From the NCBI GenBank assembly GCA_008369845.1, contig MRSU01003724.1:1-42581 (forward strand): a DNA stretch of 42,581 nt. Direction: 5' to 3'. Below, piece after piece: positions 2,049 to 36,975 of the stretch. The notes beneath the pieces are model-generated. The model did not search any database. It had not been told where the DNA came from and saw only the letters and a list, made by a program, of their open reading frames with translations. The translations under genes were made by a program, and so were the position numbers. Every line of letters begins with the position of its first letter. The stretch's first letter is position 1. This stretch comes from Trichomonas gallinae (lineage: Eukaryota).

Positions 2049-2501
2049 TAAAAAGTTTACATGATGATCCACCCATTCAATTTTTTTGGAAAACCTTTTT
2101 ACTCTAGATGAAGAATTGTATGTAATGACTGCAAAATTTTATTTGTGAAGTTTACAACCTTATTCAGATTTTTGAATCTTCTTTCAGTCAATAGACAGCG
2201 TTTTGGCTTATTTATCTGCTTTTGTCTCGGATTTAGCAGATTTTCAAGTCATTTCTCTGATATAGTGTTGATTAATCAATTTCGATTTCGATTGTGTTCT
2301 AATTTTATCTTTAAATAGCTAAAATGCTTGTTTTGTATTGAAATATTCATTCGAAATGTGGACAAAATAGAATGATAAATTTTCAATTATGAAATTAGTT
2401 GACGATTTGGCGTAAAAATAAAGCAGTCATTATATTTGTAAAAACAATGTTTATTTCTATAATTCCAACGTAGATTTTGTTGAGTCGGGTTTATTATTTG
2501 T

Positions 2502-2618
2502 TTAGAGACCCATATAGTCGAAAGTTTTGACGACGGTTGATAACACCGCTCCATTGTTCTCTAAGTACTCTATGATCTCCTTGTTGTTGGTCTGATTTGC
2601 AAAAGATAAAGGAGTTTC
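2502..2618 (-). CDS. Split ankyrin gene, coding segment 3 (terminal)
   Basis: Manual translation ETPLSFANQTNNKEIIEYLENNGAVLSTVVKTFDYMGL*, a clean terminal ankyrin repeat missed by the ORF track; stop lies in TAAA. Confidence 0.85.
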   Translation of the reverse strand, partial: ETPLSFANQTNNKEIIEYLENNGAVLSTVVKTFDYMGL

Positions 2619-2783
2619 AATATTATAATATGAATTTCATGAGTTGATTGATGAACGCCTTATTTTGGTGATGAACAGCATAATTGGAATGATGAATCCA
2701 ATAACTAAATTAAATGAATTATATTTGAATAAGATGAATTGCATATGATGAAAAATGAATATGATACTGATATAAAAATGGAC
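2619..2783 (-). repeat. Intervening array 2: eight ~21-nt RTYCAT units (putative micro-intron/micro-exon chain)
   Basis: Unit lengths 23,21,20,22,21,20,21,17 (sum 165), each starting GTCCAT, ATTCAT or GTTCAT on the coding strand; in-frame TGA at 2637-2639. Confidence 0.85.
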
Positions 2784-2873
2784 TAACTTGATATTGACAT
2801 CAGCTCCATTCTCAACAAAGAACTTTACAAGATTAAAATCCTGATTTTTGATTGCAATAGTCAATGGACAGTC
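2784..2873 (-). CDS. Split ankyrin gene, coding segment 2 (30 codons of one repeat)
   Basis: DCPLTIAIKNQDFNLVKFFVENGADVNIKL, 90 nt of intact ankyrin consensus. Confidence 0.85.
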
Positions 2874-3097
2874 ATTAAGAAAAAATGAACTTCAGTAAGG
2901 AAAAATGAACAAATTCATATAGAAAAAATGAATCGTATAACATATAAAAATGAATATGATTAAGAATTGTTGAATCTTATAAGCAAATGTATGAATATAT
3001 TGAAGATATAAGGAATTCTATAGGAAATATAATGAATATAAAGAGATGGATGATGAACTCCATAATTATGATAATGAATTGTATATTTCCATTGTAC
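2874..3097 (-). repeat. Intervening array 1: eleven ~21-nt RTTCA units (putative micro-intron/micro-exon chain)
   Basis: Unit lengths 18,21,21,21,20,21,20,22,23,20,17 (sum 224); first unit starts GTAC, the rest ATTC or GTTC; in-frame stop at 2960-2962. Confidence 0.85.
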
Positions 3098-3913
3098 ATT
3101 TTTCTCATTAATATCAAATCCGTTCTGAATGCAGAAACATGCAGCTTGGTAGTTGCAGTATTTCATGCAATTAGCAACCGAAATAATTTCCACATTGAAA
3201 TGCTCATGAAGCCAATCTGCTACGTCATTTCGATGACACTCAATGCATGTGTTATAGCAGTCACGGAATTTATAGCCTTGATGCTCCAGAATATGAATAA
3301 TTTCGAGATTTCCACCTTCGCATGCTGCCTGGCAAGTTTTTTCACCGATTTCGGCTTCAGATAGAACCAAAAACTTGAAAATGTCTATCGATGCATAGCG
3401 AGCAGCCACATCTATAAGCTTGTATCCATCATAGTCTTTATTGATGCTGAATGTTGGGTGTGTGTAAAATTTATCGAATTCATCTTTCATGTCCCAGCAA
3501 ACTGCGTGTAAAATGCTCTCCTCTGGGAATATAGAGATGCTCTGCTTCGCTGAAATAGAGGAGTACTTGGTCTCTATGATTCCACGCTCACTAAGTATAG
3601 AACCAATGAATGGGTTGAATTTGAAGAATTCTTTCCACTTCAACTCTGCGTAAAAATCTGCCAATTTTTCTCTGCTTTTCTCGCGTTTTGTAGAAACAAT
3701 GTTGATGGCATCGATAATGAATTGCTTTTGGACGAGTCCTGAACTTACTATCTCGTTGACTTTTTCAGCACATTTGATTATTTGATTCTGATTTTTTGGT
3801 AAATCCCAAATAATTTCAGATATTTCGTAGTAGGGGCGGAATATGTCGATAATATCTGCCTCCTGGATGTTTTCTACTATCAAATCGCTGGGCAAAGGCA
3901 ACTTTGTATCCAT
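3098..3913 (-). CDS. Split ankyrin gene, coding segment 1 (trichomonad DUF3447-like ankyrin protein)
   Basis: LIDVAARYASIDIFKFLV...ACEGGNLEIIHILE...CIECHRNDVADWL...CIQNGFDINEKN; the ORF-track tail after NEKN is just translation of array 1. Confidence 0.85.
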
Positions 3914-4910
3914 TTTATATATTTTATCACAATTTTTATCGTCCAGATTTTAATCATTTTGTGTCGACACATATAATATTTTGTGAGTATTGGATAAATC
4001 AACTTTTGGACAGAAATAGAATTAAATTTGCACTACTAAGACCATAAAATATTAATATTTCGTTATATTCATTTCAATTAGTGATTTTTAAATTTGGTCA
4101 TTGAAAAATGTTTTGATGTGACGGCTGTGGGCATAGTAGTATATTATAAATTAGTTAAAAAGGCTATTTTGTTATGTAATTTATCTTTAAAGTGATGCTT
4201 TTCTATATTTAAAATCAAAATTAAACTATTATAAAGTTTTTAAGAACTATGATATGCTAAAACATTTATAGATGTACATATATAGTCTATATATATAGTA
4301 CTATAAGTTGAACTCATTATCATTATTATATCAAATAATTTCATATTTTCATTTGAACTGTGCATCATGAAATATATATATTTTAGGTTAAATAATCTAT
4401 ATTTCTTTCCATTTGTTATTTACTTGATTATAATTTGGATAAAGTTAGGTAATTAGTATAATAAGGGCCCTCTGTCTTAGACACTGAAAATATATAGCGT
4501 TATTACAATTATTATTGAATGCTTACTGAATGGATATTAACTTTGCAAAATATATCATTTTAAAATAGAGTTTAAATGAAAATTATGAACAAATTATCAT
4601 TATCTAAGACGAAAAATAGCCATTGATAGTAATGAAACTGCTCAATTGAGAACGTAAATTTGATCGGAATTAAAACCGATAATGTAAGATTTTTGCTCTT
4701 CCCATTAGCTTAGTCTGGTCCAACAAACACATTTTGTGAGTTGAAATGACGACTAAAATCACGAAGCAATTTTTGTCATGAATAAAAAAAAGATTTTGCT
4801 CTCTTTTTCAGCGCCAGCACGTCCAGACGATGGAGAGCAGCGTATTTTATGCAGAATGTGAAGCAGGAGTTCAAAAATTTTTCGTTTCCGTCTCACTTCA
4901 CTTGATTGTC

Positions 4911-15154: not shown

Positions 15155-16932
15155 CTATGATGGGATTTTGTTCAAATTTACCCGAGCCTCCTTTAGAAGA
15201 CTGACTAGGAAGCTTTTTTGTGTGCCTGTCAACCTCTCTATTTTGCTGTATTTTTCTTGAAATTCGCCAAATTCGTCAGATATTTCCTTCTTGGCAGTTT
15301 TATCACACCATCTGCTGAGTTTCTCGTTTATCTCGTCGATAACGGAGTCAATTTCACCAATTATGTCGTTATTTTCCGCCATTTGTTCGATTTTTTGCTT
15401 GTATTGCTCTATCTCTTCTTGAGAGTAGTTCAGTTTGAACTCAATATTACTGATAGTATTAGTTTCCTCTTGCACAATTGAAACATACAAAATTGTATCT
15501 GAATCAACTTTGAGCGTGATTCTTAGCTTTTTGACTCCCTTAGGAATATTAGGGATGCTTATTGAATGAAGGAGTATGTTGTTTGAGCAGATGTTATCTT
15601 CACCTTGATAAATTTCCAATTTTAATTCCGATTTGCCTCCAATTATATTAAATTTGAATGTGTTTTCTTGAGGAATTGGGAATCCACTAAGGATGAATGG
15701 CTGAAATACATCATTATCCGTTTTGATTCCGATGCTTATCGGCTGAGTGTCGATGAAAACAGGCACATTTTCAACCGGCATAGCTTGGCGCATTTTGTGG
15801 ATGAGGCACATTCTTATAGCACCCTCTGCGACGACAGTGAATAAATCTCTAGCTTCATAAATTATTTTGTCTGATTCAAAAAATTCGATGAGCTTGACCC
15901 GAACTGCCTCTAGATTAGAGGATCCACCAACTGGAATAACTACATTTAGATCTTCTTTCTTTAAATGAGCCATTTCCAATGCTTTCTCAATTGGATCAAT
16001 GATATCCTCAATAATACTTTCGAATTTCCTTTTTGTAAGTTTAACCTCTAAATTCTCGCCTTGCCAAAACGCTGAAATGGTAATTGTTTCGTTTTTCACA
16101 AATTTAAAGTTTTCTTTGACTCTTCGGCATTCCAACCTTAACTTGCACATATTCATGCGATGATATATTTCATTCTCATTGTATTCATAATTAGAATGCT
16201 TTTGTTTGAAATCATTGATTGCATATTCCATTATTTTAACATCTATGTCAGCTCCTCCAAGCTGTGAATTTCCATATGTAGAAAGAACCTTATAAATGTT
16301 TTCTTTCACATTAATAATTGTTACATCTAAAGTTCCAGCGCCAAAATCGAAAATCATGATGTTTGCTTCATTCATATGACCAGTGTCTTTGAGGAGATCA
16401 TAACATTCAATTGATACTGCTGTGGATTCATTATAAAGCTGAATTAAATCAAGTCCTGCAATTGCTGCAGCCCTTTTGGTAGCTTCACGTTGTATATTGT
16501 TAAAATATGATGGAACTGTTATGATACACTTTGGATTTTTGATTTTTGTCATTTTGTAAAATGCATCTTTGATATGCATAAGTATCATAGCTGAAATTTC
16601 TTCTGGTCTGTATTGTTTATCATCAACACTGATCATTGCATATCCATCTTCGTCTTCAACAAGTTTATATTCACAATTCTTAAATAATCTCTGTACTTTT
16701 GGATCTTTTAGTTTTTCCCGATCAAACGCTTCGTGCTATATATGAATCTGGCTGGATATCGATATTGTTGCGTTAAGAATGCTTCGCCAATAACAATTTC
16801 TTTATTTTCTGTAATAACAACAACTGAAGGAAGTCCAGGGTAGTTATTTGAAAGTGCCATTTTATCACACCTGCCACTTTCTAGGGCAAAATATGCAACT
16901 GTTGATGAAGTTCCAAGATCAATCCCCAACAT
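15155..16932 (-). pseudogene. Divergent Hsp70/DnaK-like gene with one frameshift (pseudogene or sequencing error)
   Basis: MLGIDLGTSST...KRLIGK joins (K)LKDPKVQ...ITVPSYFN...IFDFGAGTLDV...VGGSSNL if one A is added to the A5 run at 16712-16716. Confidence 0.85.
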
Positions 16933-30345: not shown

Positions 30346-33300
30346 ATGGCGGAAAGTTCGGAGCCGAACTTATTCCAGCAGTTATTAGCAAAGATAGATG
30401 CTGTGATTCAGGAGCATCCTGTTACCGCCTACGAAGTTATTGAATCTAAAGTTTACGCACCACAACGCTTTCTTGAGAAATTCGCAAAGAAAAATATGAT
30501 TTTGATGCATAGATTCAGCGCAAACAGAATCACTGGCGCCTTAAAGCTTATATTTAACGCTACAGATGCAATTCTCAAAAAGAAAACGAGTGGATTGCCT
30601 TTCGCAACAGTGAATAAATTATGTATCTATTTTACACTCGGAGCTTCTTGCATTAATAGTCGTCCTATAGTTCCAGGCGAAGAAGTTGCTGACGAAGTGC
30701 TCGGCCGTCAAATTATTGCGCAGTCGAGTATCATTTTCGGAAATGATTTTGATAACTACACGTCTTTTGTCCAGAAATCTTTCAAAAACTTTTTATCCGC
30801 GATTGGTTCCCATAGCTCAAATATATATACGTATTTCTTAAATGCATATCAATCTGATATCGTCGCTGGAGCATCGATAAAGACCATCCAAATCAGCCTC
30901 AAGCCTTGGAAATACATGCCAGCCTCCATTGACCACGTCGTTAACTTCTTAAAGCCAATTGCATCAAATGTTAACCTTATAACGGATAAATATAGAGAGC
31001 CTTTCTGCCAGATGATGACAGCGACCCTGCTATCTGCTTTCCAACGCGATCCCGTCGCATTGTCTGATTTCCTGACCAAAAGAAGTGATATTATGTTAGC
31101 AGCTTCAATTCAGGATCAGATCATGTCATGGAACACGTCCAGTAGCCCGTTCGCGTGGCCAACAATGGCAGCTCTTTCGGTATTACTTCCAAACACTCAG
31201 CTGTCAACAAGCGAAGAAATTCCAAAATTACCTTTCATCAACAAATTCAAAGACATCGCGAATCCTAACAACTCCAATATCAAATTACCGCTCTTTGTCG
31301 CTCAGTCCATTCTCGTCTACTACCACGCTTTCGCCGTTTCTTCAGCACATAAGCTTCTTTTAAGATTCATTCAGCTACAGTTCCCGAATTTTATGAAGAT
31401 CTATTTCAACAACATGACAGAAATGTCAGGCGATTTCGTTAAAGTCCAAAAAGTTTATTATCCCATTGCAATTTTATATAATGCAACAACTTTCTTCACG
31501 AAGGAGGCTCTTCCTCACATCCTACAGCACGACTCATCACCGCAATTTACGATGGCTTCCATAATCAAGCGCTTCTGCAAAATTGCGAGCCCGTTCCCAG
31601 ATTTCTCAAAGAATTTCATTATGTACCTGATTCCTTCTACGCTTGATATCATAAGAAAGCCAATCCCAGACCCAAAGCATCCTTCTCTCCTTCCTCATAT
31701 CATTTCGGGATTCCAGTCCTACCCGCTCTTCATGAGAATGACTATTTTCTCCGACCCAGATGTTTGCAAAGTTCTTTTCAACTACGTCGCTAAGTATCCA
31801 GAAGTCAACCAACAGTTTTCGTACGTCTCATTCTTCAGCACAGAGCTGACAAGCGAAAGTATCCTCGATGAAGTCACCATCCTGATCTACAAGCAGTTCA
31901 TTTCGTTCTTGCTTGAGCGTTACACAACTTTGGGAATGTATAAGCCGGTATATTTTGACTTGCACATTCCTGAGATCATCCATGCGATCTCTGAGTCACT
32001 TCTACAGATCTTCCAGCAGGAGACTGACATCACAGATCATTTGGCAGCGCTTTTAGTTCCACTTTTGTCTGAGCTCGAAACATTTTCGCTGATGTTCTTC
32101 GCTTCTTCGAAGAAGAATTTCATCTCTATCGGCACAAACATCATGTACACACTTGTCGAAATCGTTCACGTGGCCCCAGAGCGTCTTTCCTCGAAGATGC
32201 CTGTCGATGACTACCAGCGCCTTGTCTCAGATGCCCGCGACAAGAAGGACTTCAAGAAGATCCCACCCAGCATCTCCAACATCCTCAAGACGCTGCCAAT
32301 GCCGACACCTGGCATCGACAGGGCGTATAACGCTCTTTTCGACTACTTCATGGCCCTGTGCAAGAAGTTCGACTCTTCTGTCTCGCTCGTCATGCCGACA
32401 GATCACGACATCGACACAAGCGGCATTGACATCAACGCTGAGTTCATTTCAGTCATCTCCATGCTGTTTTCGATTGTTTTCGACCAGACAATTCATCTGT
32501 ACAACCAGATGAAGTTCTTCCTTCAGAACGAGAAGGACATCGGCCAACTCGCTGCCACAGCGATTCCAGTTTGCCTCGCTCCACGCCACTACAACCCTCT
32601 GATGACCATCATCCTCGGCTACTTCAGGCAGTTCGACAACAGAGACGGCACGTTCAACATCTCGCCGAAGAACATCATCTTCCTCAACAACATTCTCAAC
32701 TTGCTGAGAGGTGTCTGCTCACAGGTCATCTACTGGACGCCTGAAATGATCAACCAGTCTATCTTCGGCCAACTCGGCAAAAAGATCGTCTCATTGTGCG
32801 ATGTAACGAATGGTGACTCGTCGAAGCTGATGTGCCTTAAGACACTCATCGCGATGATCAAGCTCGCCAACGAGCGAGGAAAGCCATTCGAGCCAAAGAT
32901 GAGGCACGCTATGTCGAAGACGATTCTCACATGGCTACCGCAGTCGGGTGATGCATCAAAGGACTTCGTCAACATGATCCACGAGGCACTCGCTCTTATT
33001 TTGGATGAACTTTCCCTCATCGAATGCGTCGATATTGAGGATCCGAAAGGCGCTGTCGAGGAGGCAGAGAAGCAATTCATGTTCTACTTCGCCAGTATTA
33101 AGAACAGACTCGAGAAGGAGCCAAATTCTGCGAAGCAGATTATTCCAGTCCTTGCCGCTCTTCTCAAGCAGAACCTTTCCATTGCCATCGGCCACTGTCT
33201 TTCAATGGGCTTCGATAGCAAGGACTCAGTCAGAACTGCTTTCATTGCTTCAGTCGCTGCCGTTTTCAAAGTCCCAGAAATCAGAGTCGTTGGCACTGCA

Positions 33301-36300
33301 GAAGCTGTCACAGAAGAAGTCACACTCATCGACATCCTTTTCTCTGGCAACTTAAAGCTCATCGAAATGATCGGCAACAACATAGAGTACAGCCGTGCAG
33401 AACACTTCGCGAAGGCTTCTCTCGAGGCCGCCGTCATTGCAGGAAGGACATATGAATACTTTGCTAGGATGGTTGAAGTCGAGTTGAAACCTATTGACGA
33501 CAGCAACAAGAACACAATCTTCAGAGGCAACGCCGTGCCAGCTCGTGCTGTCGGCCACTGGCCAAGGTTCGTCGCCATGGACTGGCTCAAGGCTACCCTA
33601 AGACCAATTTTCGATGAAGTTATCTCCAACTGCCAGAATAAAGTCGGATATATCATCAACCCGGCGAAGATTCCAGCCGACCAAAACATCGAAGTCAACA
33701 ACGATAACTTCCGCCAGATTTTAAAGAAGACAGTCCAGGCAATTTTAGATGGACAGTCTTCGATGCCAGACTCTTTGATCTTCGCTGCACAAATCATATT
33801 CGAGAAAGTTTTCGAGAAGGTCGGAGAGTTCGCTTACTCCATCCTTTCATCTTTCCTCTTCTTGAGATTTATTATTCCAGCTTTCTCCGCCACGCAGATG
33901 GTTGGACTTCCACCGCTCCTCCCGGACGCTCCACGCGAAGCTTTATTGCAGATTTCGACAGTTATCATGTCCTCTATTCTCAAGGGCAGGCTTGATGACA
34001 AGGCTGCATATTTGGCCCCATACAACGATATCGCAAAGTGGACTCAGGATTCTGTCAACTCAATGTTCCGCGGCTTAGTCCTCAAGCAAGTTTCTCATGA
34101 ACCTCCGAAGCTCGACATCGATGAGGCGCAGACTATTGCTAACATACACGCCGAAGTATGGCCTGTCTTGAAGAACCTCACACCACAGATTGAAGGCCTC
34201 GAAGCAGGCTCTGAAGAGCAGATCAACGCAAAGAGGTTTATCACTAAAGTCAGAGCAATGGGCCAGCCATCCAATCTCTCGAAGAAGAAGATTACATCGG
34301 AGCAAAGTGTCGCAGGCTACGACGAGCTCATGAACATGACATTCCCACCAGATCAAGAGCAGCAGCTCCAAGAAGCAATTTACAGAGATGAAAAGCAGTC
34401 GCCAGATGGCTGCGGAATTATTTACATTCACTTCTCAAAGCTTTCTTGCGTCAGAGACCCAAGAATCGTGGCTCGGCTTCTTTTCAAGGCTCTTAGACCA
34501 GACGACACGCAGCAGGCATACGTCTGTCTCATTCTCCCAGGCTTCGACCCAAGCAGGATCCCAAACACGACGATGATCCAGACATACATGACTATGCCTC
34601 CAGCGAAGCTGATCAAGCAGTACCTCATCTTAGAAGCTCCAAACGAGTTCGCTGTGTTTGTTAAAGAGAACCCAAACATCTTCAACAAGCCGCAACGCTT
34701 TGAAGTCATCGATTCCCTTTCAAAGCTCACAAGAATTCTCGGCCCAGTCCCGGCATCAATCCCAGCGACAACAATCGAGTCATTCACAGAGCCGCAGGCT
34801 ATCTACTCAGTGACTCTCAACGGCGACTCCACAAAGATCAGACTTCACGAGCACTCATTACAATTGATCGGCGACGTCGTCGACATCTGCGGTCAGTCAT
34901 TTACACCCCTCAGAGTCATCATGGCTGACCAGATCAAGGACTTCGAGCGCTCTTATATCACAAGGACGCCTGGCGATGAATTCAACCTGACGATCACGAT
35001 GAAGAGTGGCATCGTTTACTCAATGCGTGTCCCAGTCAACTCTCCGATGTATGACGCTGCTTATCAGTTAACGCTTAGAAGCCGTACGATCATGAATGCA
35101 ATCCAGTCTGTCGATGTCAACACGTCTACACTCCACTGGATGATGCTCAACCTCGCTTTTATCAACATCATCGCCCCAGAATCTTCTATTTCGCTGAAGA
35201 AAGCTGCAATCGATTTGATCTATGCCGTATTCGTGTCTTTCACCTTCAATCATCAGTTCAAGGTTGAGAAAATCCAGTCCGAACTTCTCCCATACAACCT
35301 CAGTGGCTACGTGCACGACCTTTCAACAGACCTTGCGAACTCGAACAAGGAGAATGTCAACGACTTCATGAATGAATTCTTCAACGCAGCGAAGTATGTC
35401 AAAGGTAAATCTCTCCCAACGATTTTCTTCTTCTTAGTCCCATGGATTGAGATTTTCGCCAGACAGCCCAGCATCCCGAAGGAGATCGTCGAGAAATTCA
35501 TCGACATGGTCCTCGCATCCAAGAGCTCAGACTCGGTCTGCTTCCCTGAGTACGTCTGGCCAGCTTTAGTCCAGAACGAGAAGATTGTCGAAATGATCAT
35601 CAACATCATCTTCGAGCGCAACGACTCACAGTTAATCGAGATAGCTGCTCAGCTCGCTGTTCTTAAGCCAACTCTTACGTCCAGCCTTATGGCCGATAAA
35701 TTTGCTGCTGTCATCAATGGAAAGGACGATTCTCACATCGAGTTTATTAGCGGCGTCATGACAACGATGATTTCACTCCACGTCTTTGACTTCGATAATG
35801 TCGGCGCACAGCTCCTTTATAACTGTCTCCAAGCGAGAATCGCATTCCCGAACAAGACAGTTGTTAGACTGCCACCAATCCTGATGAACGCCCTGCACGA
35901 ACTGTTCAGACGCTCAGGCAGCGGAATTGAGTTTGACCACACATTCATCGTCTCATCCTTCTGCACATATGATGGAGCCAATGAGTACATTGACGGAACC
36001 GGTGGTTACAGGTGGTGTGCAGCAGCCAGAGCAGTAGGCGAAGTCATCGCACGCGCAGTCAACAACTTCCCATCCAAGAAGTTGAAGGAGAGCTTGTTTA
36101 ACATCTTCGAGAAAGACTCGCTCGATCCAAGCAACCCTCTCCTTTGCGCCCAGGGCATAATCTACTCTGCGCCATTTGCTTCAGATCCTGCTGCTTATGC
36201 AAACAACCTTGTCCAGAAGTTGCGCGAATGCGATCCAATCCACGTCACTCCTCTAATTTTAGCTCTTTCATTAATAGAAATGACTCCGGAGCTTGCTGGT

Positions 36301-36975
36301 AAGCTATACTTCATCGGTGTCGCGCTCGGTGCACGCTACAACTCCCCAGCATGCGGCGATCTTGTTATTTCCGCCCTTAAGCAGTATTCTGATCTAACCG
36401 GATCCACGAGCGGCATTACAAGATACATGCACAGCACATTAGTAGAGTACCTCGAAACATGCACTGCCCTTCCTCTGCAGAAACAGCCTGCTTTCTCCGC
36501 GATCGCAATGGCCGCTTGCTACTCTAAAGGCGGCCTCGCACAGATTTTGGAGAAGCTCTCGAAGCTGAAGACAGATGAGCCAGTCGCTACAGCTTTCAGT
36601 GTCCTGAGGGATGAGTCACTCTCGAATGAGCTCGCCAAGGCTGACTATGGTGAAAACTTGGCAAACTTATCTGCCATCTTAATGATCATGCTTAGAACAC
36701 GAGTTCCAACTACACTCATCGAATTCACGATCAACCTCTTCACGGAACAACCCAACGGTCTCGGTGCCTTCGATGCGATTGGCACAAAGTTTGGCAGACA
36801 GATCTTCGAGGTCGTCAACGACGCTAGATTCACTGGCCTCCTTCTCAGGAATGCCAGAGTCAAGAATGAGGACTACAAACTTACTTCAATATTATATCCG
36901 ATCTTCATAGATATGCCAATGGTCACAATATCGAAGGAGCAGTCCGATCACCTCGTATATAACGTATTCACATAA
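30346..36975 (+). CDS. Large neurofibromin-like RasGAP
   Basis: TIFRGN arginine finger, SFLFLRFIIPAF RasGAP signature, flanking helical-repeat regions; 2209 aa with no interruption. Confidence 0.9.
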   Translation: MAESSEPNLFQQLLAKIDAVIQEHPVTAYEVIESKVYAPQRFLEKFAKKNMILMHRFSANRITGALKLIFNATDAILKKKTSGLPFATVNKLCIYFTLGASCINSRPIVPGEEVADEVLGRQIIAQSSIIFGNDFDNYTSFVQKSFKNFLSAIGSHSSNIYTYFLNAYQSDIVAGASIKTIQISLKPWKYMPASIDHVVNFLKPIASNVNLITDKYREPFCQMMTATLLSAFQRDPVALSDFLTKRSDIMLAASIQDQIMSWNTSSSPFAWPTMAALSVLLPNTQLSTSEEIPKLPFINKFKDIANPNNSNIKLPLFVAQSILVYYHAFAVSSAHKLLLRFIQLQFPNFMKIYFNNMTEMSGDFVKVQKVYYPIAILYNATTFFTKEALPHILQHDSSPQFTMASIIKRFCKIASPFPDFSKNFIMYLIPSTLDIIRKPIPDPKHPSLLPHIISGFQSYPLFMRMTIFSDPDVCKVLFNYVAKYPEVNQQFSYVSFFSTELTSESILDEVTILIYKQFISFLLERYTTLGMYKPVYFDLHIPEIIHAISESLLQIFQQETDITDHLAALLVPLLSELETFSLMFFASSKKNFISIGTNIMYTLVEIVHVAPERLSSKMPVDDYQRLVSDARDKKDFKKIPPSISNILKTLPMPTPGIDRAYNALFDYFMALCKKFDSSVSLVMPTDHDIDTSGIDINAEFISVISMLFSIVFDQTIHLYNQMKFFLQNEKDIGQLAATAIPVCLAPRHYNPLMTIILGYFRQFDNRDGTFNISPKNIIFLNNILNLLRGVCSQVIYWTPEMINQSIFGQLGKKIVSLCDVTNGDSSKLMCLKTLIAMIKLANERGKPFEPKMRHAMSKTILTWLPQSGDASKDFVNMIHEALALILDELSLIECVDIEDPKGAVEEAEKQFMFYFASIKNRLEKEPNSAKQIIPVLAALLKQNLSIAIGHCLSMGFDSKDSVRTAFIASVAAVFKVPEIRVVGTAEAVTEEVTLIDILFSGNLKLIEMIGNNIEYSRAEHFAKASLEAAVIAGRTYEYFARMVEVELKPIDDSNKNTIFRGNAVPARAVGHWPRFVAMDWLKATLRPIFDEVISNCQNKVGYIINPAKIPADQNIEVNNDNFRQILKKTVQAILDGQSSMPDSLIFAAQIIFEKVFEKVGEFAYSILSSFLFLRFIIPAFSATQMVGLPPLLPDAPREALLQISTVIMSSILKGRLDDKAAYLAPYNDIAKWTQDSVNSMFRGLVLKQVSHEPPKLDIDEAQTIANIHAEVWPVLKNLTPQIEGLEAGSEEQINAKRFITKVRAMGQPSNLSKKKITSEQSVAGYDELMNMTFPPDQEQQLQEAIYRDEKQSPDGCGIIYIHFSKLSCVRDPRIVARLLFKALRPDDTQQAYVCLILPGFDPSRIPNTTMIQTYMTMPPAKLIKQYLILEAPNEFAVFVKENPNIFNKPQRFEVIDSLSKLTRILGPVPASIPATTIESFTEPQAIYSVTLNGDSTKIRLHEHSLQLIGDVVDICGQSFTPLRVIMADQIKDFERSYITRTPGDEFNLTITMKSGIVYSMRVPVNSPMYDAAYQLTLRSRTIMNAIQSVDVNTSTLHWMMLNLAFINIIAPESSISLKKAAIDLIYAVFVSFTFNHQFKVEKIQSELLPYNLSGYVHDLSTDLANSNKENVNDFMNEFFNAAKYVKGKSLPTIFFFLVPWIEIFARQPSIPKEIVEKFIDMVLASKSSDSVCFPEYVWPALVQNEKIVEMIINIIFERNDSQLIEIAAQLAVLKPTLTSSLMADKFAAVINGKDDSHIEFISGVMTTMISLHVFDFDNVGAQLLYNCLQARIAFPNKTVVRLPPILMNALHELFRRSGSGIEFDHTFIVSSFCTYDGANEYIDGTGGYRWCAAARAVGEVIARAVNNFPSKKLKESLFNIFEKDSLDPSNPLLCAQGIIYSAPFASDPAAYANNLVQKLRECDPIHVTPLILALSLIEMTPELAGKLYFIGVALGARYNSPACGDLVISALKQYSDLTGSTSGITRYMHSTLVEYLETCTALPLQKQPAFSAIAMAACYSKGGLAQILEKLSKLKTDEPVATAFSVLRDESLSNELAKADYGENLANLSAILMIMLRTRVPTTLIEFTINLFTEQPNGLGAFDAIGTKFGRQIFEVVNDARFTGLLLRNARVKNEDYKLTSILYPIFIDMPMVTISKEQSDHLVYNVFT

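Follow-up and report, generated by a model that had tools for sequence, protein, structure and literature searches.

The window analyzed here is a stretch of 42,581 nucleotides of Trichomonas gallinae (contig MRSU01003724.1). Its minus strand holds a gene for a protein with a DUF3447 domain and ankyrin repeats, the coding sequence of which stands in three blocks (E1 to E3) separated by two AT-rich arrays of short units:

3080..3913, minus strand: E1, start codon at 3913, 278 codons, DUF3447 and ankyrin repeats, C-terminal ...NGFDINEKNVQWKYT
2874..3079, minus strand: array 1, 206 nt, 10 units
2784..2873, minus strand: E2, a single ankyrin repeat (DCPLTIAIKNQDFNLVKFFVENGADVNIKL) without a start codon of its own
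2619..2783, minus strand: array 2, 165 nt, 8 units, in a frame shared with E2 and E3 that contains one TGA (2639..2637)
2502..2618, minus strand: E3, the final ankyrin repeat and a tail (ETPLSFANQTNNKEIIEYLENNGAVLSTVVKTFDYMGL), coding from 2618 to 2505, stop codon TAA at 2504..2502

E1 matches Pfam DUF3447 (PF11929; E = 4e-11) and Ank_3, and E2 exceeds the cutoffs for both Ank_3 (23.9 bits against 22.3) and Ank (22.6 bits against 21.1). E2 and E3 are intact ankyrin repeats, neither of them with its own start codon. All three blocks are in frame, at phase 0, and removal of 3079..2874 and 2783..2619 (coordinates set by hand) joins them. Measured against the canonical 33 residues (hand count on the Pfam Ank alignment), the joined loop is about 3 residues longer at junction 1 and about 3 shorter at junction 2. 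The protein-atlas clusters closest to the gene are DUF3447/Ank proteins of Parabasalia, and the gene is a member of the Parabasalia DUF3447/ankyrin-repeat family.

The remaining 22 large open reading frames (ORFs) of the window, which include BspA-type LRR, ankyrin, histone, Hsp70-like, and RasGAP genes, are all uninterrupted. Positions 1-230 hold a divergent pair of histone-type genes, with a minus-strand ORF starting at 72 (MPAKKGVKKTATKT...) and an H2B-type gene on the plus strand at 228-617; the spacer of this pair carries a 14-nt tandem AAAACCCCGCCAAA (93-121) and three GGCGGG boxes at about 150-215, and looks like a shared bidirectional promoter. The Hsp70-family ORF (15155-16636, minus strand; 493 residues) matches its profile from position 102 of 599 onward and may be either a truncated copy or a gene that starts upstream of the first ATG. 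The 2209-residue RasGAP-domain ORF (30346-36975, plus strand) lies in a stretch of 43-50% G+C with a negative GC skew, in a window that usually has 29-40% G+C. Between the ankyrin gene and a gene for an M24 peptidase, about 900 nt (3960-4830; 29% G+C) are free of ORFs, a long spacer for an otherwise tightly packed window.

Relatives of the gene

Protein searches yielded three relatives in all. One of them, P0001 (289 residues), is 48% identical over 273 residues, and the similarity ends at K[YF]TI, the codon where array 1 starts; beyond this point P0001 has a tail rich in F, I, L, and S. Another, P0002 (527 residues, 31% identity), is uninterrupted: it reads ...CIQNGVDVNSKNNNNYSHPLFAAIQ... across the interruption site, continues ...NSKNNNNYSHPLFAAIQ..., and contains a 31-residue repeat. 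Since P0002 passes through the same place without a break, the joined sequence ...KNVQWKYT/DCPLTIAIKN... would be a plausible protein of normal build. The 84-residue ORF formed by E2 and array 2 had no match in the protein search, and no related loci were found when the alignment of E1 with P0001 was searched in metagenome, genome, and viral contigs.

A close relative of the locus, at about 95% identity, occurs in Logan contigs of a public DNA run from a bird metagenome (X1). Among the 40 listed of the 71 differences from X1, 28 fall within E1, and 23 of these 28 are third-position changes (binomial p = 1.5e-7), which argues that E1 has been under purifying selection while the arrays were present. 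Both of the differences listed in E2 (2786 and 2793) are synonymous (TTA>CTA and AAT>AAC; codons assigned by hand). Two paralogous X1 contigs match only the second half of E2, which they leave at 2786 and 2793, and run on into other AT-rich sequence that again contains TTCAT; this suggests that the paralogues carry arrays here too. Because these paralogues exit E2 and the similarity of P0001 ends exactly where array 1 starts, the interruption looks old and family-wide. No RNA run matching the locus was found, and two metatranscriptome runs of the same study yielded none of it.

Unit grammar and constraint of the arrays

The preliminary description had divided array 2 into units that each end in AT and are separated by triplets, and the minus strand of 2619-2783 splits exactly as it was first written. 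The units are 23, 21, 20, 22, 21, 20, 21, and 17 nt long (165 nt in total), the triplets are CAT GCA ATA TGG GCT GGC GAA (H A I W A G E), and the exceptions to the unit ends are unit 6, which ends in AA, and unit 8, which ends in ATT. Array 1 has units of 20-23 nt, each opening with RTTCAT except for one ATTCCT and one ATTCAA. Over the 18 units of both arrays, the grammar consists of A at -5 (16 of 18) and T at -4 (14 of 18), a free triplet, R at position 0 (all 18), and a core of T (18), T (17), C (18), A (17), and T (17). The spacers show no comparable conservation, and G is absent from +6 to +11 throughout the 18 units.

Read on the plus strand as ATGAAY, the counterpart of minus-strand RTTCAT, the core occurs in array 2 at 2630, 2651, 2671, 2692, 2714, 2734, and 2755, at a spacing of 20-22, and in array 1 from 2885 to 3074, at a spacing of 20-23 with a step of 41 at a degenerate unit. 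In bins of 250 nt, there are six ATGAAY in each array bin and at most three in every other bin of the window. A pattern of three units, TTCATN{9,12}ATNNNRTTCATN{9,12}ATNNNRTTCAT, has three matches in the window, all in array 2, and none in 100 dinucleotide shuffles. When scanned with this pattern, 3 of the 64 parts of the metagenome contigs yielded 118 loci, and 36 of the 64 parts of the viral contigs yielded 120. Among the 238 loci fetched, all runs of at least 6 units are homogeneous repeats or microsatellites, and the most heterogeneous runs have only 4-5 units; the locus that was inspected (L079) has no ankyrin context. Full-text literature searches found such arrays nowhere described.

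The triplets had been called G-richer than the spacers, and the counts bear this out (13 of 54 positions against 5 of 177; Fisher p = 6e-6). They had also been noted as free of stop codons; this holds for the triplets as read, but is uninformative, since by a hand estimate chance alone would leave a fraction of about 0.19 of such sets stop-free. On the sense strand the arrays have 42-50% T and 6-7% G, compared with 19-20% G in the exons, and the skew exceeds that of three neighboring intergenic regions. Every frame of the arrays contains one to three stops, and array 1 shifts the frame. Summed over the frames, stops are slightly scarce (7 against 11.8; 6 against 11.1), and openness of array 2 to the extent of a single stop is not unusual (about 0.14, hand estimate).

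Tandem Repeats Finder (TRF) reports only 3-copy stretches at 72-80%, one with period 20 at 2872-2932 and a second row at 2712-2777. Some neighboring units are similar (those in the TRF rows and units 1.8-1.10), and mean spacer identity among the units of one array is 0.32-0.39. Overall, the likeness of neighbors does not significantly exceed that of permuted units (P = 0.18), and we therefore regard the arrays as old and diverged, with the motif alone kept. The best local alignment of array 1 with array 2 (about 50 nt) scores above plain shuffles (P = 0.002) but is no better than shuffles that preserve the core, the AT, and the unit lengths (P = 0.75). Thus the two arrays share their grammar and nothing more, in keeping with the earlier view that array 2 is not a copy of array 1.

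In X1, both arrays are present with equal numbers of units, without an indel in 371 nt and with about 6-7% substitution; the comparison for indels is weaker in array 1, which X1 covers in short contigs (63-121 nt) of two variants. Units, for which gain or loss among relatives had been proposed as a check, have thus been neither gained nor lost with respect to X1, and indels occur only outside the arrays, in flanking noncoding sequence at 2500 and 3922. In the X1 contig that spans array 2, the 165 nt of array differ at 10 positions and the 173 nt of flanking exon at 6, a contrast that is not significant alone; apart from the two in E2, the other 4 of these 6 exon differences lie within 31 nt of the contig ends. 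By class of position, the 25 changed sites of both arrays are distributed as follows:

TTCAT: 3 of 90 sites changed
AT: 2 of 36 sites changed
Triplets: 1 of 54 sites changed (GGC>GGT)
R: 3 of 18 sites changed, all A<->G
Spacers: 16 of 177 sites changed

Motif positions (TTCAT, AT, and triplet) have thus changed at 6 of 180 sites and spacers at 16 of 177 (p = 0.028), and the spacer rate (9%) is similar to the rate at third positions of E1 (at least 23 of 278). The idea that the shared grammar is a signal under selection finds support here, as the motif changes about three times less often than the spacers, a modest effect, and R changes only between A and G. Two cores of array 2 are broken in X1 (GTTCAT>ATTCTT, by changes at 2652 and 2656, and ATTCAT>ATTCGT, at 2715).

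Signals at the locus and possible readings

All of the 63 Trichomonas introns considered in PMC12316389 are reported there with GT/AG and a 12-nt 3' motif, and Type B introns, which are ultrashort spliceosomal introns, are 23-25 nt long and follow GTWYWD-N7-TCTAACAAACAG (PMC12316389, PMC13548475). Trichomonas is credited with only about 50-65 introns, all with one rigid signature of the GT...ACTAACACACAG type. Neither of the expressions published for Type A and Type B introns has a match in the whole window, and [AT]CTAAC does not occur on the sense strand of 2505-3100. In place of a Type A or B donor (GTAYGT or GTWYWD), array 1 starts with ATTCAT and array 2 with GTCCAT (C at +3), and in place of the 3' end (A/T)CTAACA(C/A)ACAG the arrays end in ...AAT and ...ATT. 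Five of the 18 RTTCAT cores fit GTWYWD, a loose expression with 255-316 matches per strand in the window. Pairing GTACAA at 3097 or GTTCAT at 3058 with the AG at 2892-2891 gives products that are out of frame; GT at 3097 and 2798 with the CAG ends of ...IKNQ and ...FANQ is in frame but deletes the first helix of each repeat and comes without a branch motif. On the plus strand, opposite the ankyrin gene, ACTAAC is followed 16 nt later by CAG at the border of E2 and array 2 (2779-2800); as an acceptor it misfits the 12-nt Trichomonas motif, and we take it to be due to chance.

Several other identities were considered for the arrays and set aside. Their ends can pair over 7 bp each (CAATGGA at 3094 with TCCATTG at 2868, and TCAATAT at 2797 with ATATTGA at 2623); complements of at least 7 bp also occur in 5% of control 30x30 windows, and the pairing of 2797 with 2623 is broken in X1 by the change at 2793, which is uncompensated. 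Against a structured RNA, the arrays fold no better than shuffles (z = +0.62 and -0.92), and Rfam returned only subthreshold C/D-box matches on the plus strand (15-21 bits, where 40-50 are needed). Units of 17-23 nt with one to three stops per frame do not suit an in-frame coding (heptad) repeat. Copy number, which may change between close relatives in an ordinary minisatellite, is the same in X1. Read-through translation would meet one TGA in array 2 and the frame shift in array 1.

The end of the gene bears a signal of a different kind. UAAA is described as the validated poly(A) signal of Trichomonas (PMC13548475). A TAAA at 2504..2501 overlaps the TAA stop of E3. Such an overlap is seen at 8 of the 22 other ORF stops in the window, and in 12 of the 22 a TAAA lies within 30 nt. 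From the E1-frame stop inside array 1, the first TAAA is 135 nt away, a distance seen in only 2 of the 22 ORFs. The 371 nt of the arrays contain no TAAA on the sense strand and five on the antisense strand; the mean expected on the sense strand is 4.9 in mononucleotide shuffles (P = 0.004) and 2.0 in dinucleotide shuffles (P = 0.10), and three intergenic regions have 1.1-2.2 per 100 nt.

We tentatively favor the reading that the arrays are constrained, noncanonical intervening sequences, predicted to be excised. Both would be removed from the mRNA as wholes, after which E1, E2, and E3 would be read as one ankyrin protein; the excision, its boundaries, and its machinery are all things we infer from the DNA. 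This reading is preferred because E2 and E3 are intact, in phase, and without start codons although they follow an interruption that the 48%-identical homologue also has, and because the gene-end signal stands at E3 while the arrays lack TAAA and indels and their motif changes more slowly. The repeated motif may be the signal that marks the arrays, with RTTCAT as redundant donor-like sites that fit or nearly fit the Type B GTWYWD, or alternatively as evenly spaced sites of a platform for an RNA-binding factor, and the route of removal would differ from the known Trichomonas GT...(A/T)CTAAC...AG pathway. Counting against excision are the lack of any known intron signal in the arrays, the looseness of the GTWYWD match, the modest constraint, and the two cores broken in X1. 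The departure of both joined loops from the canonical length, the weaker TAAA deficit under dinucleotide shuffling, and the insignificant contrast in divergence between exon and array weigh on the same side. Pseudogenes are common in the expanded gene families of Trichomonas, which also counts against it.

The modules may go back to the opening segment of an ankyrin repeat, duplicated in tandem, in which ATT or GTT followed by CAT would be the I/V-H of TxLH. The reading from E1 into array 1 is ...KYT-IH, junctions of the form TAT NNN RTT CAT (Y-x-I/V-H) are frequent, and one paralogue reads ...DTCVHLL... at the same place; judged from these sequences, the probable source of the motif is the pair of I/V-H codons (ATT/GTT CAT) in the TxLH of ankyrin repeats.

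The main alternative, serious but doubtful, is a truncated or dying gene with decayed repeats, which was broken when a 21-nt piece of its ankyrin coding sequence expanded long ago in the manner of a minisatellite. Only E1 and a random tail reaching to the TAA at 2962..2960 would then be made, and E2 and E3 would be relics. The stops in every frame of both arrays, the frame shift in array 1, the missing intron signals, and the local period-20 repeats found by TRF all suit a gene of this kind, as does the part of array 1 that would be translated, which shows no codon bias with respect to X1 (1, 3, and 2 differences at codon positions 1, 2, and 3 of the E1 frame, counted by hand); the gene caller ended P0001 likewise. 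Decay leaves unexplained, however, the slower change of the motif, the missing indels and missing TAAA, the two intact, in-phase blocks that score as ankyrin, the interruption shared with the 48%-identical homologue, and the TAAA at the E3 stop, as opposed to the 135 nt that separate the array 1 stop from one. The units are also far more heterogeneous than those of ordinary tandem repeats, the long runs among the 238 pattern loci being near-identical. If E1 alone is the protein, the arrays might instead be 3' untranslated sequence, a platform of UUCAU sites (presumably of a kind with YCAY-type sites) for an RNA-binding protein acting in stability, localization, or translation. That would accommodate a constrained motif amid drifting spacers, an RNA predicted to be unstructured, as expected for single-strand binding sites, and the strand asymmetry in G and T, which points to a signal at the RNA level. 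We nonetheless consider such a platform unlikely, as it gives no account of intact, in-phase E2 and E3 or of a second array after E2, and places the first TAAA 135 nt beyond the E1-frame stop; we know of no factor that binds it.

A period of 20-23 bp, with a mean of 20.7 bp or two helical turns, would also suit a row of protein-binding sites on the DNA, present by chance in a gene remnant, either as initiator-like TCAYW or as half-palindromes ATGAA-R-TTCAT; some junctions are indeed palindromic, for example ATGAAATTCAT at 2640..2630. This is quite unlikely, given that one half-site only is conserved, that no promoter-dependent gene lies nearby, and that both the G/T asymmetry and the one-sided avoidance of TAAA (none sense, five antisense) point to RNA. 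The preliminary description had spoken of a codon menu of triplets, which from the sequence is unlikely. In its explicit form each RTYCAT...AT is an intron of 17-20 nt and each NNN an exon of 3 nt, so that array 2 would write HAIWAGE into an ankyrin loop. Within the unit it is the triplets that are rich in G and shifted in composition, and they have changed least with respect to X1 (the one change, GGC>GGT, would be synonymous), at sites too few to count as evidence. The units, on the other hand, have neither GT..AG nor a branch or acceptor motif, none is long enough for one, 12 of the 18 begin with A, X1 carries two broken cores, the loops would exceed the canon by about 4 residues (array 2) and about 10 (array 1) by hand count, and triplets free of stops are expected by chance at the rate estimated above. 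We regard these micro-exons as the least probable of all the readings considered. A new class of intervening sequence in parabasalid ankyrin genes, in which RTTCAT...AT modules of about 21 nt would be excised singly without a canonical branch or acceptor and leave 3-nt micro-exons (an array-specific loop peptide), is likewise very unlikely.

If the arrays are removed from the mRNA as wholes, as we tentatively favor, the intron census of the lineage is incomplete, a second removal route exists, and many 'truncated' ankyrin genes of this hugely expanded family may be whole. Both recent intron catalogues are filtered on the canonical signature (PMC12316389; PMC13548475), so intervening sequences with other signals would have been discarded. 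If the arrays are not removed, they are still unusual in keeping a short motif in register over 18 diverged modules, and that register needs an explanation, for example an RNA-binding platform.

Comparison with known systems

The arrays resemble several known kinds of sequence in part. Minisatellites with a conserved core consist of head-to-tail units of about 20 nt, and separate arrays share a short core. The arrays studied here are likewise head-to-tail units of about 20 nt with a common short core, but their units are alike barely beyond it, their copy number is identical in X1, and their core shows strand asymmetry within a gene under selection. Recursive splicing proceeds through ratchet points, juxtaposed AG/GT sites in very long introns. 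Common to it, to micro-exons, and to our arrays is the idea of close-set, splice-like signals with stepwise removal and exons that are very short or of zero length; the arrays, in contrast, have no AG/GT, and each whole array is shorter than 210 nt. The nonconventional introns of euglenids lack GT-AG, occur in protist nuclear genes, and depend on pairing of the intron ends. The arrays, too, are putative intervening sequences that lack GT-AG and lie in a nuclear gene of a protist, whereas their folding is no better than that of shuffles.

Type B introns of Trichomonas differ from the arrays in having the TCTAAC...AG 3' half, which the arrays lack; most units of the arrays start with A, 8-10 of them stand in tandem, and the arrays are predicted introns. 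The likenesses to Type B introns lie in the size of the module, which is close (20-23 nt), in a G-poor, T-rich body with a T-rich run in many units, and in the opening GTTCAT, which fits GTWYWD in 5 of the 18 units, while 11 of the 18 differ only by G1>A. Both also occur in multicopy genes for repeat proteins.
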